From NCBI GenBank assembly GCA_944359025.1, contig CALVSM010000002.1, forward strand, positions 1 to 41,925: 41,925 bases of DNA. Reading direction: 5' to 3'. A model generated the notes under the pieces. It searched no databases and was not told the DNA's origin. It worked only from the letters and a program-made list of their open reading frames with translations. Shown here one piece after another: positions 87 through 31,589 of this stretch. The translations under genes and the position numbers were made by a program. Positions within the stretch are counted from its first letter, which is position 1, and the number at the start of each line of letters is the position of its first letter. The stretch is from an uncultured Bacilli bacterium (GTDB taxonomy: Bacteria > Bacillota_I > Bacilli_A > RF39 > UBA660).

Positions 87-1109
87 TTATTTTAAAGCTT
101 CTAATAATTCAGCTTTTTTCATAGTTGAATAACCTTTAATTTCTTTAGCTTTAGCTAATTCTCTTAATTCAGCTACAGTCATCGAATCTAAAGATTCAAC
201 ATTAGTTTCTTTTTTAGTATCTACTTTTTCTTCTTTAACTACTTCTTCAGTTTCTTTTACTTCTTTTTTAAATTCTTTTTTGTTTTCTTTTTTAACAAAT
301 GGTTTTTTAAAAGTTTTATTTTCTTTTTTAGGTCTTTCTTCTTTTCTTTTTACTGTTTCTAAAGCTTTTTGCATTACTTCTGTAGCATTTTCTTCTTTGT
401 TCTTATCACTAGAATAATCAATTATTTCACCACCATTAGCTTCGATAATAGCATTAGCCATAACACTAGTAATTAATTTTACTGCTCTAATAGCATCATC
501 ATTAGCAGGAATTACATAATCAACCATATCTGGATCACAATTAGTATCGACAATTCCAAATACAGGAATATTTAATTTTCTTGCTTCTTTTATCGCAATT
601 TCTTCTTTAGATGGATCAACGATATAGATAGCTTGAGGCAATTTATTCATTTCTCTAATACCACATAATAAGTTATCTAATTTAGCATATTCTTTCTTTA
701 AACCGATAACTTCTTTTTTAGGTAATAAATCAAATGTACCATCAGCTTCCATTTTTTCGATTTCTTCTAATCTTCTAATTCTTCTTCTAATTGTTTTAAA
801 GTTAGTTAAAGTTCCCCCTAACCATCTTTCAGTAACATAATAAGAACCTGATCTAAGAGCTTCTTCTTTAATAGCTTCTTGAGCTTGTTTTCTAGTACCT
901 ACAAATAAAACTTTACCACCATTAGCAACAATTTCTTTTAAAGCTGTATAAGCTTCATCGATTTTCTTTGCTGTTTTTTGTAAATCGATAATATAAATAT
1001 CATCGCGAGAAGTATAGATGTATTCCTTCATTTTAGGGTTCCATCTTTTAGTTTGATGTCCAAAGTGAACACCAGCTTCAAGTAAATAACTCATTGACAC
1101 TACTGCCAT
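87..1109 (-). CDS. rpsB: 30S ribosomal protein S2 with an unusual ~90-aa Lys/Glu-rich C-terminal extension ending in a Rho_N/SAP-like helix-hairpin
   Basis: [27 protein letters not shown] is the canonical S2 N-terminus. The ATG at 1109 is preceded by GGAGGAATTTAAA. The longer track ORF (to 1208) has no RBS and adds non-S2 residues. Confidence 0.95.
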
Positions 1110-7393: not shown

Positions 7394-9425
7394 TTATATT
7401 TCGTATGGACTCGACCAAGTACCATTACCTCCGGTAATGGTGACATTAGAGTTGACAACTATAACTGCACGAAGGCCGTACGCGTCGCTGACACTGTCGC
7501 TGACGCCGACGCCGGCGAAGCTGACGTACCAAGCGTAAGAACTAGAAGTTCCCGGTGTCATTGTCCAATAATCATTCGCATTACCAAAGCTACTTGCAGT
7601 TGTATATCCTTTTGTTAGGATACTACTACTTTGTCCTGATAACATCTCTCCTATTCTTATTAACCCTACTGTTGCATTGATACTCCTTGTTGGACTATTT
7701 TCTTCCAATGATATCGTATAATTACCACCAGAAGTAAATTCATTTTGATGCCATGTATAATTTGTTACTAATTTATCTCTATTTTCAGTATCACTACTTG
7801 CTACTAACCATTCTAATACATCACTATTTAATTTTTGACCTATTCCCGTTGTTATTGAAAATGTATTATTACTTCCATATTCCATTTCATAAACACTACC
7901 GTTTTCTTCATAATAGCCATCTAGTATTAATTTGGTATTGCCATTACTATCTTTATCGACTACCCGATATTTCTTTCCAGCATATAATACATACTCCCCA
8001 CTTGTTGCTTTTTCGTTTAATTTGCCTGTTACTTCTATACTCTTATCTTCGTTTAAAATATATGGGCCAGCACTACTACTCCAAGTTGCTCCTAGAGTAC
8101 CATTACCTCCGGTAATGGTGACATTAGAGTTGACATTTATAACTGCACGAAGGCCGCCCGCGGCGTCGACACTGCCGGAGTTGCGGCCGGTGATGTTGAC
8201 GAGCCAAGCGCGAGAACCATCATATGGCGTTAATGTCCAAAATACTTGCTGATTAACTAAATAAGAACTATCAGCTCCAGCTAAATTATTTTCATCTAAT
8301 GATATTAAGCCTACTTTGGCTTTTTCCGTCGATAAATTATTACTACAATTTGTCCTTGCACTTGAAACATCTGTCACAGTCTCACTACACCATGTTTGCT
8401 CTACAATAATATCATTTCCTTTTAATCTTGAATAAAAATAATTATTTAACCAATCTTTAGCATGACTTCCATCATAATTTAAAGCGGTATCTTCTGCTCC
8501 CCATGGTATAGCCGTGACATTTTCTTCGATTATTAATCTCACACTTCCATCAGCATTAATTCCCATAATACGCCATAAGAAACCTGAATACCATATATAA
8601 TTATTATATACTTTAACTTGAAAATATTTTTCAGATGTCGTTCCAAATGCAACTTCAAAAGCAGTATCTACTCCATAACTTTCTAAAAGTCCAGCATCCA
8701 TTCCCCCATCCGTAAATGCCCAATTTTCAAATTCTTCTGCTTTAAATTCACCATTTGTTTTAAAAAAACGAGCATCGATTTCTTCTCTTGAAGTAAAACC
8801 AGATAATAACATCAAACTATAAAAATTTTCTTTAGGGTCAATACCACCTTTTAAATAACAACCTCCCATATAACTATAATTGTTACTTCCTGGGTTCACA
8901 CAGCCATTACCATCAGTTTCTAAAAAAGGGAAATTAGATAACACTACATCTTTAATTGGTCCAGTATGTATTATAGCTACTTCATCATCACTTGCCTCAC
9001 ATACTTCATCATCCATCACAAAACTTCCATCGGCACACAATTTAAAAATATGGCCGTTACTTTCTACTTCTAATTCCGTTAATTTACCATCTTCATAAGT
9101 TACTTTATTAACTGTAGCATTGCCTAAATTAACCATATCATTTACTTCTTCTACCGTTACTCCATCCGCACATATATCAGGTGTACCATTTAACTCTTGT
9201 TCCATTTTTGATGTCGCACAATAGTTATTAATACCACTATAAATCATCCTTGCTTCCGAACGACCTGCTGATATACGCGCATCACTAATTACATTTAAGA
9301 TAATTGGTGTCGCAATTAAAGCTACTATTGCTAGTATAATTATTACTGCTAATAATTTAATTAATGTAAAATTATTATTTAATAATTTCCCCCCCCCCCC
9401 GAATTTGCGATTTGCAATTTTTCAT
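7394..9425 (-). CDS. Large type IV pilin-like protein with two DUF1566/C-type-lectin-like modules carrying DGR-style variable regions; frame-shifted (phase OFF) at a G12 tract as sequenced
   Basis: The track ORF 7394..9247 is open upstream to 9421 but has no start codon there. An ATG at 9425 with RBS GGAAAGGAAG and its own promoter lies in the +1 frame and stops at 9375..9377. Removing one G from the tract at 9389..9400 yields MKNCKSQIRGGGKLLNNNFTLIKLLAVIIILAIVALIATPIILNVISDAR..., a class III (pilin) signal paralogous to the pilin at 12018..12428. Confidence 0.75.
7418..7456 (-). repeat. 39-nt post-VR block, copy A (100% identical to 8096..8134), with a 9-bp perfect hairpin
   Basis: The plus strand agtaccattacctccggtaatggtgacattagagttgac is identical in both copies. 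ACCATTACC / GGTAATGGT pair around a 3-nt loop (7421..7441). Confidence 0.9.
7457..7537 (-). other. DGR-type variable region A (C-terminal module), about 60-67% G+C
   Basis: The coding strand reads TAC GCT TGG TAC GTC AGC TTC GCC GGC GTC GGC GTC AGC GAC AGT GTC AGC GAC GCG TAC GGC CTT CGT GCA GTT ATA GTT. It differs from copy B only at codon positions 1-2. Confidence 0.7.
8096..8134 (-). repeat. 39-nt post-VR block, copy B, with the same 9-bp hairpin (8099..8119)
   Basis: It is identical to 7418..7456, although the surrounding protein modules are strongly diverged. Confidence 0.9.
8135..8212 (-). other. DGR-type variable region B (internal module)
   Basis: The coding strand reads CGC GCT TGG CTC GTC AAC ATC ACC GGC CGC AAC TCC GGC AGT GTC GAC GCC GCG GGC GGC CTT CGT GCA GTT ATA AAT. 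Codon usage is NNC inside an NNT/NNA gene. Confidence 0.7.
9389..9400 (-). repeat. Homopolymeric G12 (C12 on the plus strand) tract within codons 9-13 of the large pilin-like gene
   Basis: Counted directly: cc at 9389..9390 plus ten c at 9391..9400. It is the only long G/C homopolymer seen in this AT-rich window. It sits between the ATG (9425) and the body of the ORF, which are 178 nt apart (3n+1). Confidence 0.95.
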
Positions 9426-9462
9426 TTTAAAACTTCCTTTCCTATTTTTTACTTTCAAATTA

Positions 9463-9491
9463 ATTTTATCTTAAAATAAGTTAATAGTCAA
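9463..9491 (-). promoter_or_regulatory. Sigma-A-type promoter of the large pilin-like gene (TTGACT-N17-TAAAAT)
   Basis: On the minus strand the -35 TTGACT is at 9486..9491, followed by a 17-nt spacer and the -10 TAAAAT at 9463..9468. The architecture matches the small pilin promoter. Confidence 0.5.
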
Positions 9492-12017: not shown

Positions 12018-12428
12018 TTAGTTAGAAGCTACTCCTTTAGATAAACTAAATGAGTTACCACTTAAAGTAGCTGTGTATCCATTACTTTCAACAACAAGTG
12101 CAGAAACTCCACTTTCGCCATAAGTTACAGAAACAATTTTAGCTTTACCTAAAGTTACCATTTGGCCAACTTCAGCTGCAGTTACTTCATAACCATTTTT
12201 AGCAGCATTTAAACAAATACTATCTTGAGTACTATTTAATTGATCTTTCATGTCAGCAGTAGCGCAGTAATTATTGATACCACTTAAAATCATACTAGCT
12301 TCAGATTCAGCAGCACTTTTTCTTGCATCGTCAATTACGTTTAAAATAATTGGTGTTGCGATTAATGCTACGATAGCTAAAATGATAATTACAGCTAACA
12401 ATTCGATTAATGTAAAACCTTTTTTCAT
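12018..12428 (-). CDS. Type IV pilin / ComGC-like pseudopilin with a canonical prepilin signal
   Basis: MKKG|FTLIELLAVIIILAIVALIATPIIL carries the N-methylation motif with Gly-1 and Glu+5. It is 136 aa with a GGTGGTGA RBS. Confidence 0.85.
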   Translation of the reverse strand: MKKGFTLIELLAVIIILAIVALIATPIILNVIDDARKSAAESEASMILSGINNYCATADMKDQLNSTQDSICLNAAKNGYEVTAAEVGQMVTLGKAKIVSVTYGESGVSALVVESNGYTATLSGNSFSLSKGVASN

Positions 12429-16003: not shown

Positions 16004-16058
16004 TAATTCAAACAACATTTAAACAGTTAATTTATTTAAATTATTGATAAAGTTTTTA
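16004..16058. repeat. 55-bp direct repeat, copy 1 (duplicate of the recO 3' end plus 15 nt of downstream flank)
   Basis: taattcaaacaacatttaaacagttaatttatttaaattattgataaagttttta is identical to 16655..16709. Confidence 0.9.
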
Positions 16059-16062
16059 ACAA

Positions 16063-16575
16063 TTATTTATTATTTACTTTCCAATAACCGCTTTCTTGAT
16101 AATAAATTTTCAATGTCTTAAATTCTAAATCTTGTTTAGGAGACTTTATTTTTCTTAACGAATTCCTCGTTCTTTTAGAAAATAAATTAAGAATAGTTTC
16201 ACCGTTCATGCTTTCAACTGAAGAACCGACTCTAATAAAACAACTGTCTGGAGTCATACCCATACCTCTTAAATAATATGGTCTCTCATTACCTTTTGCA
16301 ACAATAATTTGTATATAATTTTTATTGTTTTTTTTATTTACAATAACATCAAATAAACCCAAAGTTGAAGGCATAATATTATTCTTTAATCTATCTTTTA
16401 TAGTTCTTTGTAATAAATCTATATTTTCTAAACTATCTTGAATATTTCCATTGTCATCTACCCCAATAAAAATATTCCCTCCATCAGTGTTTAAAAAAGC
16501 AATTACTTCTTTTTCTAGACTATCAGTAATTTTTGCTTTAAATTCGTTTCTTTTATCTTCCAATAATTCTATCAA
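16063..16575 (-). CDS. AlbA_2 (Schlafen-like) domain protein, apparently C-terminally truncated
   Basis: NEFKAKITDSLEKEVIAFLNTDGGNIFIGVDDNGNI is the typical AlbA_2 N-terminal motif. Full-length relatives are about 400-500 aa with HATPase/HTH parts, but this one ends 5 nt from repeat copy 1. It has a TTG start after GGTGAT. Confidence 0.6.
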   Translation of the reverse strand: MIELLEDKRNEFKAKITDSLEKEVIAFLNTDGGNIFIGVDDNGNIQDSLENIDLLQRTIKDRLKNNIMPSTLGLFDVIVNKKNNKNYIQIIVAKGNERPYYLRGMGMTPDSCFIRVGSSVESMNGETILNLFSKRTRNSLRKIKSPKQDLEFKTLKIYYQESGYWKVNNK

Positions 16576-16654: not shown

Positions 16655-16709
16655 TAATTCAAACAACATTTAAACAGTTAATTTATTTAAATTATTGATA
16701 AAGTTTTTA
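16655..16709. repeat. 55-bp direct repeat, copy 2 (the authentic recO 3' end)
   Basis: It is identical to 16004..16058 and contains the last 13 codons plus the stop of recO. Confidence 0.9.
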
Positions 16710-30372: not shown

Positions 30373-30530
30373 ACTTCATAGAAAACTTAGCTTTCTCCAT
30401 AGACCAACCTCGGATGGTCGCCACCCTATTTTTATTTCATTCAAAACTAATTGAATTGCAGTTCGTCCATATACTGTTTTAACCCTTCATTCATAATATT
30501 AATACTAGCGTTTAAATCTCGTTCATTTTT
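30373..30530 (-). ncRNA. Putative omega (re) RNA scaffold of the TnpB element
   Basis: In characterised IS605-family elements, the region overlapping the tnpB 3' end and about 75-100 nt downstream encodes the guide RNA. Here it contains an unusually GC-rich structured stretch, GGGTGGCGACCATCCGAGGTTGGTCTATGGAG (minus strand). The boundaries and guide cannot be defined by eye. Confidence 0.3.
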
Positions 30531-31589
30531 ATTTTGACATTTTGGACATTCCCACTCTCTTATCTTTAGATTTTTTAATTCTTTATTTTTATAGCCACAA
30601 TGACTACATATTTGACTACTTGGATAACTGGTATCTATTTGGTAGAATTTCTTATTCTTCCACTTACTTTTATACGATATACATCTTATTAGTTCTTGCC
30701 AACTGGCATCATATATTTGTTTAGAAAGATGGGAGTTTTTTACCATTTGATTTATCTTTAATTTTTCAGCCACAATTATGTCATTTTCTTCGGTTATTTC
30801 TTTACTTATTTGATGAATGAGATATTTTCTTGCATTTCTTAACTTTTGATAGACTCTAGCTAGTTTTAATCTAATCTTTTCGCGATTTTTGCTTCCTTTT
30901 TGGCTTCGTGATAACCATTTTTGTAACCCTTTGATTTTCTTTTCATATTTTTGAATATATTTTTGATTATCATATACTTTACCATCGGATGTTATAACTA
31001 GATTTTTTATTCCTAAATCTAGCCCGATTATTGTTTTAGGTGTTATTATTGGTTGATTGATATATTCTTCGACACAAACACTAACATAATATTTATTTGC
31101 TTCTTTATAAACTGTCGCATTAATAATTTTGCCATTTATTTGTTTTAAGTTGCGATATCCTTTAATAGCTACTTCTTTTAATTTGGGTAATTTGATTATT
31201 TTTTTATTCAAATCTAGTTCGATACTGTTATATGTTTTTTCTTTATAATTACTTGTTATGTTATTCGTCCGATAACTTTGTCGGCTTCTTGTTTTACTTT
31301 TAAATTTTGGTAAACCTTTCTTTTCTTTAAAATATTTTTGATAAGCGTTATCCAAATTAAAAATACTACATCGAAGTAAACAACTATCTACTTCTTTTAA
31401 CCATAGATATTCATTTATTAATTCTGGTAATTTTTTTATATAATTATAAGCATTAATTTTTTCTTCTTTGCTGATGTCTAAAAAATAGTTATAAATAAAT
31501 CTTGAACAGCCAATACTTTTTTCAATTAAGATTGCCTGTTCCTTAGTTGGATATAATCTAAACACATAACCTTTTAATATTTTTTCCAT
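30447..31589 (-). CDS. tnpB: IS605/IS1341-family TnpB (OrfB) RNA-guided endonuclease
   Basis: The N-terminus KGYVFRLYPTKEQ is typical of OrfB. Candidate RuvC residues lie in IIGLDLGIKN, IVAEKL and RDLNASINI. The zinc ribbon is CSHCGY...CPKCQ. It is 380 aa. Confidence 0.9.
   Translation of the reverse strand: MEKILKGYVFRLYPTKEQAILIEKSIGCSRFIYNYFLDISKEEKINAYNYIKKLPELINEYLWLKEVDSCLLRCSIFNLDNAYQKYFKEKKGLPKFKSKTRSRQSYRTNNITSNYKEKTYNSIELDLNKKIIKLPKLKEVAIKGYRNLKQINGKIINATVYKEANKYYVSVCVEEYINQPIITPKTIIGLDLGIKNLVITSDGKVYDNQKYIQKYEKKIKGLQKWLSRSQKGSKNREKIRLKLARVYQKLRNARKYLIHQISKEITEENDIIVAEKLKINQMVKNSHLSKQIYDASWQELIRCISYKSKWKNKKFYQIDTSYPSSQICSHCGYKNKELKNLKIREWECPKCQNKNERDLNASINIMNEGLKQYMDELQFN

Follow-up and report, generated by a model that had tools for sequence, protein, structure and literature searches.

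The large pilin-like gene on the minus strand of contig CALVSM010000002.1, a 41,925-nt stretch of DNA from an uncultured Bacilli bacterium (26.2% G+C; here called the window, at its full length), carries a run of 12 G's in its leader. From comparison with related loci we are fairly confident that this run (G12) is a hypermutable simple sequence repeat (SSR) and serves as a translational ON/OFF switch, i.e., a contingency locus, of a modular type IV pilin-like adhesin. The same leader tract has 8, 9, 10, 11, 12, or 14 G's in about 15 relatives from independent metagenomes. The gene also contains two variable regions (VRs) of the kind produced by diversity-generating retroelements (DGRs), and we lean, with less assurance, toward a two-layer system in which a poly-G leader switch is combined with a trans-acting DGR that targets two lectin-like domains per copy, in multi-copy pilin adhesins of spore-forming gut Bacilli.

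Results

The G tract separates the start codon from the reading frame of the gene body

The elements of the gene are listed in Table 1. On the minus strand from position 9425, the leader reads ATG AAA AAT TGC AAA TCG CAA ATT C and then G12, after which it continues AAATTATTAAAT; the tract occupies codons 9-12. The frame of the gene body (KLLNNNFTLIKLL / GGGGKLLNNNFTLIKLLAVIIILAIVALIATP) lies one base over from that of the ATG and is open from a TGA at 9424..9422 to the stop at 7396..7394. This TGA overlaps the ATG and so deprives the body frame of a usable start; inspection of that frame upstream of Met 9247 found no ATG, GTG, or TTG, and the nearest candidate, an ATT 14 nt from the Shine-Dalgarno (SD) sequence, is poorly spaced. 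Since the body frame opens at the TGA and offers only this ATT, the OFF state should be tight, barring transcriptional or +1 ribosomal slippage. With one G fewer (G11) the ATG yields a 676-aa product, and G8 and G14 are likewise in frame, whereas G12 is out of frame.

This tract is the single G/C run longer than 6 in the whole window, where 1.3e-5 runs of at least 12 would be expected; it contains 5 G8 words, whereas shuffles that preserve dinucleotides have 0.04 on average. The gene thus has, within its 5' coding region, a homopolymer beyond chance expectation, as contingency genes do. The original prediction, made from the letters alone, had located the promoter, ribosome-binding site, ATG, G12, and premature stop as we find them on re-inspection; its frame arithmetic, with G11 or G14 restoring the full-length protein, was likewise reproduced, and its view that such a tract is improbable in DNA of low G+C now has a computed expectation behind it. 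A second short repeat stands right behind the ATG (9418..9422, minus strand), being A5 in the window, A6 in relative L002, and A4 in relative L013.

Table 1. Positions of the elements of the large pilin-like gene and of other features of the window
Feature	Position	Strand	Remarks
Sigma-70-like promoter TTGACT-N17-TAAAAT of the pilin-like gene	9463..9491	-	Promoter scan, 10/12 matches; -35 TTGACT at 9491..9486, 17-nt spacer, -10 TAAAAT at 9468..9463
Ribosome-binding site GGAAAGGAAG	9433..9442	-	7 nt before ATG; same in L001, L002, and L012
Start codon ATG, prepilin leader	9423..9425	-	A5 run follows; A4 or A6 in relatives
G12 homopolymer (C12 on the plus strand), proposed slipped-strand switch	9389..9400	-	8 codons past the ATG
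Premature stop in the ATG frame at G12	9375..9377	-	16-aa peptide MKNCKSQIRGGGEIIK, stop 9377..9375
Gene body	7394..9388	-	664 codons plus stop; pilin helix and pilin module, then two DUF6273 modules
DGR variable region 1 (VR1)	8143..8217	-	Hypervariable between alleles
DGR variable region 2 (VR2), C terminus	7465..7542	-	Hypervariable between alleles
Small canonical pilin paralogue, MKKG/FTLIELL	12018..12428	-	136 aa, no tract; Pfam N_methyl
T-box leader, Rfam RF00230	15804..15985	-	95 bits; upstream of HD-domain/valS operon
TnpB / IS605 OrfB-type gene	30447..31589	-	OrfB_IS605, Cas12f1-like TNB, RuvC; among housekeeping genes

In pilin N termini, the slash separates residues -1 and +1.

Tract length and reading frame vary between related loci

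Another strain, L001, represents the same locus with the same gene order and shares 98% identity with the window across 15 kb. Its promoter, ribosome-binding site, and leader are those of the window, followed by an in-frame G8 tract (MKNCKSQIRGGHLLNNA/FTLIELL). The promoter is also 100% conserved in L002, which has a different genomic context; L002, L012, and L013 all carry the window's promoter and leader but occupy other chromosomal sites (Table 2). More distant members have a related leader of the form ATG-24 nt-Gn-CAT TTA (C/T)TA AAT AA. Tract length is therefore polymorphic behind an identical leader (G8, G9, G10, and G12) as well as behind related ones (G9 to G14), and in-frame and out-of-frame lengths both occur upstream of a downstream open reading frame (ORF) that is intact and under selection. 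Counted by distinct loci, 5 are ON and 10 are OFF, with full-length bodies in all of them; the top 120 protein matches include roughly 6 ON members and about 10 that are OFF or have an alternative start. This tally comes near the 1:2 ratio that a freely drifting tract length would give.

Table 2. Leader tracts of relatives of the pilin-like gene
Relative	Context	A run after ATG	Tract	Frame
L002	NUDIX / YabG	A6	G9	In frame
L012	rpsR; sample and coverage as L001	A5	G10	ATG out of frame, TTG in frame
L013	Upstream of secE and nusG	A4	G3AG6 (interrupted)	In frame
L014	Distant member		G9	ON
L006	Distant member		G11	ON
L003, L011, L040	Distant members		G10	OFF
L041	Distant member		G11	OFF
L015	Distant member		G12+A	OFF
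L039 (= L031)	Distant member		G12TG3	OFF
L037	Distant member		G14	OFF

A locus downstream of lgt and Pyr_redox_2 genes bears G9, G11, and G12TG3 across three samples, and at least two tract-bearing copies were found per genome or sample in three cases (L001 with L012, L003 with L006, and L037 with L039). In the 234 kb of lineage DNA covered, homopolymeric G/C stretches of 7 nt or more are confined to such leaders with one exception. That exception is a G8 run at 7576..7583 of L026, within the body of a family member (coding ...WGG...), which could be a second frameshift-prone site. The truncated gene calls that were fetched, beginning MILGGINNYC or MAVIIILAI, proved in four of four cases to be an out-of-frame tract above an intact body.

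The constraint on the leader is of an unusual kind: different alleles translate one conserved nucleotide leader in all three frames (MKNCKSQIR, MKKLQIANS, and MKIANRKF), so it is the leader DNA and its frame relation that are conserved, not the peptide. In L002 (A6+G9) and in L013 (A4+G3AG6) the length changes of the two runs compensate and keep the ATG in frame, which argues that ATG 9425 is the functional start. The same compensation bears on the very unlikely alternative that RNA polymerase or +1 ribosomal slippage yields some product at any tract length, making the tract an attenuator rather than a switch. Long homopolymers do cause transcriptional slippage, mostly known from A/T runs of 9 or more, and G12 would require only a +1 shift on GGG-G with perfect re-pairing; compensation at the DNA level, however, indicates selection on the encoded frame, and the same design in Neisseria pilC acts as an ON/OFF switch (PMC5320596). 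Hardly credible, in our view, is the alternative that translation begins past the tract at Met 9247, after GGAAGCAAGG, which would make the upstream frame irrelevant. Although an SD-like GGAAG lies 5 nt before ATG 9247 and gene callers choose a Met 9247-type start in OFF alleles, the resulting product would be without the hydrophobic pilin helix, which is invariant in the family and its sole export/anchor signal, and all relatives conserve the coding character of the 47 codons that separate the tract from 9247.

In some relatives, the remaining off-frame tract length falls in line with a TTG (MQIANSGGGH...) or an ATG formed by AAAAATG next to the G run (MGGGGH...). We speculate that such starts might provide a weak third expression level and a switch that is not binary; the window's own body frame has no such alternative start. 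Homologous extended leaders without a tract (GNRHLL and GNEHLL) and plain MKKG/ leaders exist as well, so the tract is an add-on in some family members.

Wider searches added little to this set. A scan of JGI metagenomes for the tract-plus-FTLIEL pattern returned 3 unrelated pilins only, and a scan of viral contigs for the same pattern gave no match, which argues against a phage origin. A full-protein search of GTDB representative genomes found no close relative, and a scan of GTDB genomes with a leader 20-mer gave only two chance matches in unrelated genomes; the species of the window is therefore missing from the GTDB genomes, or the site was not assembled there. A protein search with the tract-bearing leader returned mainly short fragments and few extra leaders. 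Among unrelated pilins, L036 (Ga0265297_10082294, positions 281..318) has ATG AAG AAA AAA-G9 inside its leader (MKKKGGGIKKG/FTLIEL), and in L007 and L008 runs of G11 (Desulfotalea) and G9 (Peptoniphilus duerdenii) occur in the SD region; G tracts at the 5' ends of unrelated pilins may reflect convergent use. The G runs upstream of pilins of Omnitrophota, Desulfotalea, Peptoniphilus, and Babeliales were set aside as a different design, being located in the SD region and not in the leader.

The length of the tract in the window

Several points weigh against reading the tract as a switch. The case is built on comparison between assemblies, from which length heterogeneity within a population and reversibility are extrapolated. 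Homopolymer length at the 4-40x coverage of short-read metagenomes may err by one base, and the agreement of two assemblies of one sample (L015/L016, L037/L038, and L031/L039) speaks for reproducibility, not instability. Slippage at transcription or translation on G12 could make the OFF state leaky, and the window allele, whose prepilin motif has Asn(-1) and Lys(+5), may be processed or assembled abnormally even when in frame. Finally, at positions 1..60 of L010 (CALVYO010000039.1), Illumina adapter, poly-A, and poly-G are fused onto the gene's own G tract; this contig end is an assembly chimera through the homopolymer. Despite artefacts of the L010 type we take the tract to be real, because it recurs inside long contigs and in at least 6 independent projects, including an interrupted version.

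A fairly unlikely alternative accepts the tract as real and holds that G12 is a sequencing or assembly error, or one of several lengths, with the dominant population in frame (G11). What it calls into question is that the gene is currently off; the switch itself would stand. The contig comes from a short-read metagenome, and look-ups with its exact LepA and YfhO proteins found as sole other sample match a second assembly of the window's own sample (L017/L018, ERZ28613860). This assembly is 100% identical to the window elsewhere but halts at 9403, 2 nt before the tract, and again at 7495, inside VR2, so that the whole pilin-like gene is missing from its long contigs. Such breaks fit heterogeneity or repeated cassettes at both of the proposed hypervariable sites; the break at the tract could equally be explained by a repeated leader cassette. 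The junk sequence that L010 carries on the same tract in another sample also favors a wrong length, as do five substitutions to A in the 33 nt past the tract, possibly low-quality base calls after a homopolymer. On the other hand, the relatives span G8 to G14, which is beyond an error of one base in either direction, about two-thirds of them are out of frame, which is what truly common OFF states would produce, and the lengths are reproduced by the paired assemblies L015/L016 and L037/L038.

Taken together, these comparisons support the slipped-strand translational switch of the original prediction, since the position of the tract is conserved while its length ranges from G8 to G14, with both frame states above intact bodies; the comparison of tract lengths across strains and metagenomes that had been proposed as a check came out in its favor. 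The companion claim, that the gene is currently OFF, holds insofar as G12 is out of frame; the length itself is a consensus from one metagenome assembly.

The gene encodes a modular pilin under purifying selection

The reconstructed protein matches Pfam DUF6273 (E = 2.3e-7), and a profile of its family matches solved type IV pilins over residues 8-62 (e.g., 8pfb PilE1, E = 4e-8), so that its N-terminal alpha-1 helix is homologous to those of known pilins. Many of its 743 homologues have a Pfam N_methyl match, with N termini MKKG/FTLIELL or similar. The small canonical pilin of the window lies 3 kb away, and the two genes share 70% nucleotide identity over the 5'/N-terminal region. By homology, the large gene is a modular type IV pilin, made up of a pilin module and two grafted DUF6273 modules. 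An AlphaFold model of the body, from a 25-sequence alignment, was poor (pLDDT 45); it has a long helix and then beta-sheet over residues 9-125 and could not confirm a C-type-lectin fold of the DUF6273 modules. General Pfam scans of the 42-kb window turned up no prepilin peptidase and no assembly ATPase or platform protein.

Outside the VRs, the ratio of nonsynonymous to synonymous substitution rates (dN/dS) is 0.18 against L001, 0.21 against L002, and 0.27 against L012. These values indicate that the body is under purifying selection and the gene no relic; at 26% G+C, moreover, chance could not keep an ORF of 664 codons open. The prepilin motif of the window allele is nevertheless ...LLNNN/FTLIKLL. 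Pilin leaders have Gly or Ala at -1, then Phe(+1) and Glu(+5), but in this allele position -1 is Asn and position +5 is Lys. The form ...NNA/FTLIELL or G/FTLIELL prevails in tract-bearing relatives and in most of the remaining members, and one subgroup (P0005-P0011) is without Glu5. Thus, the family is pilin-like, yet the window allele departs from the motif. The departures are part of a cluster of five substitutions at 9356..9388 (minus strand), within 33 nt past the tract, all of them to A when compared with L001, L002, and L012. Through them, Lys replaces His before the LLNN motif, Asn replaces Ala(-1), and Lys replaces Glu(+5); they occur in no tract-bearing relative. Their cause could be decay, a tolerated loss of Glu5 as in tip pilins, or base-calling error after the homopolymer. 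Glu5 is missing in tip-located minor pilins such as GspK.

These substitutions, peculiar to the window allele and in part at positions -1 and +5, which normally matter for cleavage and assembly, are what speaks for a decaying pseudogene. The paralogue would then be redundant, the frameshift would count among several inactivating lesions, and no reversible state would exist. We consider this distinctly unlikely: the 664-codon ORF is intact in AT-rich DNA with the dN/dS values given above against three relatives, conservation of promoter, ribosome-binding site, and leader is 100%, the VRs show diversification of the DGR type, and homologues P0005-P0011 also manage without Glu5.

Two variable regions carry the signature of a DGR

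In an alignment of four alleles, identity is 93-95% outside two GC-rich patches, VR1 and VR2, in which codons vary as NNC. As reference for the VRs we used a template repeat (TR) that is identical in relatives L002 and L019. Measured against it, VR1 of L002 is changed at 14 of 27 adenine sites and at 0 of 51 other sites; in L019 the counts are 14/27 and 1/51 for VR1 and 16/27 and 0/51 for VR2, and in the window they are 18/27 and 2/51 for VR1 and 17/27 and 5/51 for VR2. The differences between VR and TR thus fall almost entirely at adenines, as in DGR targets, and the VRs lie in DUF6273, a C-type-lectin-like domain according to PMC10743442.

The machinery is present in relatives. In L019 (Bacilli MAG.35), a family member with two patches is followed by the AAC-rich TR, a small MutS_I-like ORF, bAvd, and an RVT_1 reverse transcriptase (RT) with IGNxxSQ and YMDD motifs; in L002 the TR lies directly 3' of a poly-G-led gene with the window's promoter and leader. 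The small ORF of L019, between the TR and bAvd (JAGHHZ010000022.1, 5168..5578), encodes 136 aa with a match to MutS domain I (E = 7e-6); a mismatch-recognition fragment within a DGR cassette is unusual. In the window we found no TR and no YxDD-type RT motif, and its sole other GC-rich patch is a tRNA; because TR and RT are absent from the window, DGR activity in this genome would have to act in trans. An 82-nt internal repeat (7418-7499 / 8096-8177) was considered as a TR/VR pair and rejected, since both copies are coding and diversified and correspond to VR2 and VR1. The suggestion in the original prediction that the same gene undergoes DGR diversification is supported by the adenine-specific pattern of VR1 and VR2 and by the TR, bAvd, and RT of L019.

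Genomic setting

The window is otherwise ordinary chromosome of a spore-forming member of the Bacillota, with rpsB, spoIIIAH, lepA, yfhO, valS, recO, era, ybeY, yqfD, spoVA, uvrA, and genes of NAD metabolism; Pfam scans of the submitted window ORFs of at least 100 aa returned, besides the genes discussed above, housekeeping and sporulation genes and a TnpB. Related contigs are labeled as metagenome-assembled genomes (MAGs) of uncultured Bacilli, Firmicutes, or Tenericutes. In the interval from the HD-domain gene to recO, a Schlafen/AlbA_2 ORF (16063..16575) is flanked by a perfect 55-nt direct repeat (16004..16058 / 16655..16709). An indel distinguishes L001 from the window at this site and points to a recent insertion or duplication.

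Discussion

Our comparisons suggest the following course of events. Slipped-strand mispairing at replication would add or remove G's, and only tract lengths of 3n+2 (8, 11, and 14) would join ATG 9425 to the 664-codon body; at G12, translation would end after 16 codons. Because the tract lies within the normally cleaved prepilin leader, neither the number of Gly codons nor the upstream frame should cost the mature pilin anything. Each of the two C-type-lectin-like DUF6273 modules bears one VR, and the gene is one member of a multi-copy family scattered over the chromosome, several copies having a tract of their own. A lineage could in this way pick its displayed adhesins stochastically, by SSR slippage, and re-tune the binding of each by the DGR. 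We infer the slippage mechanism and its rate, its reversibility, cleavage of the leader, and display at the pilus tip.

Each part of this scheme has counterparts in known systems. In Neisseria pilC the tract lies in the part of the gene that codes for the signal peptide and leaves the mature protein unaffected, and opa follows the same logic. As summarized in PMC5320596 (from Jonsson 1991), pilC1 and pilC2 of Neisseria gonorrhoeae/meningitidis have poly-G tracts of G9-G15 that vary in length between strains and shift the frame, giving translational ON/OFF expression as proposed here. PilC, unlike the product of the window gene, is no pilin: its signal peptide is of the Sec type, its fold is PilY1-like, it is not known to be a DGR target, and it comes from a diderm proteobacterial pathogen with a G+C content near 50%. 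The opa genes, in the account of PMC3745409 used here, are about 11 scattered copies with CTTCT repeats in the leader-coding region, and resemble the present family as multi-copy scattered surface adhesins with a repeat in each leader, independent switching, and combinatorial expression. They differ in that the repeat is a pentamer, the products are outer-membrane beta-barrels, and diversity arises by recombination and not from a retroelement. Within the Bacillota, the 5' poly(A) tract of Listeria monocytogenes inlA, where a frameshift leaves an 8-aa peptide and reversion is frequent (PMC2831843), likewise places a homopolymer a few codons past the start of a surface-adhesin gene; that tract, however, is a short A7 of lower mutability that fits the AT bias of its genome, in a single-copy gene with no DGR.

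Modular pilin architecture is widespread and serves adhesion in Streptococcus sanguinis (PMC8179133), whose type IV pilins PilB and PilC carry a vWA module and a lectin module, respectively (PMC8179133, PMC9934059). The large gene shares with these pilins of a monoderm member of the Bacillota a small pilin module, a class III signal peptide, and bulky grafted adhesion modules, and in both the adhesion module is probably displayed at the tip. The S. sanguinis pilins are not described in those papers as phase-variable or hypermutated. The grafted modules of the window gene are two DUF6273/C-type-lectin domains. DUF6273 has been modeled as a C-type-lectin-like domain hypermutated by DGRs and is found in the "tentaclins" of gut phages (PMC10743442), and DGR-diversified tip pilins of Bacteroides type V pili are cited in PMC12632263. 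With Bordetella phage Mtd, the tentaclins, and the Bacteroides tips, the window gene has in common adenine-specific mutagenesis from TR to VR of a C-type-lectin-like ligand-binding domain, and these systems also provide precedents for the DUF6273 family, a pilus-tip adhesin as target, and more than one VR per TR. Their carriers are a phage tail or a type V pilin, in contrast to a chromosomal type IV pilin of spore-forming Bacillota, and the window target in addition bears an SSR switch in its leader. Full-text literature searches for DGRs combined with type IV pilins or with homopolymer phase variation found no description of either. Each mechanism is known, and their combination in a multi-copy family of modular type IV pilins of the Bacillota, which sequence comparison supports well, appears to be new.

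Phase variation by G/C homopolymers is textbook knowledge for Neisseria, Campylobacter, and Helicobacter, and it is scarcely documented in the Bacillota or in uncultured gut commensals. DGR targets, for their part, have mostly been regarded as constitutively available substrates. In the present case one gene family bears both devices. Catalogues of DGR targets and pilins from gut MAGs probably under-count such genes, because they are systematically mis-called as truncated and because assemblies break at the tract and the VRs. The family offers a testable commensal case of expression bet-hedging combined with directed hypervariation of binding specificity. If our reading is true, this would be the first described SSR phase variation coupled to DGR targets, and a functional parallel, in commensal Bacillota, to the opa/pilC switching and pilE antigenic variation of Neisseria.

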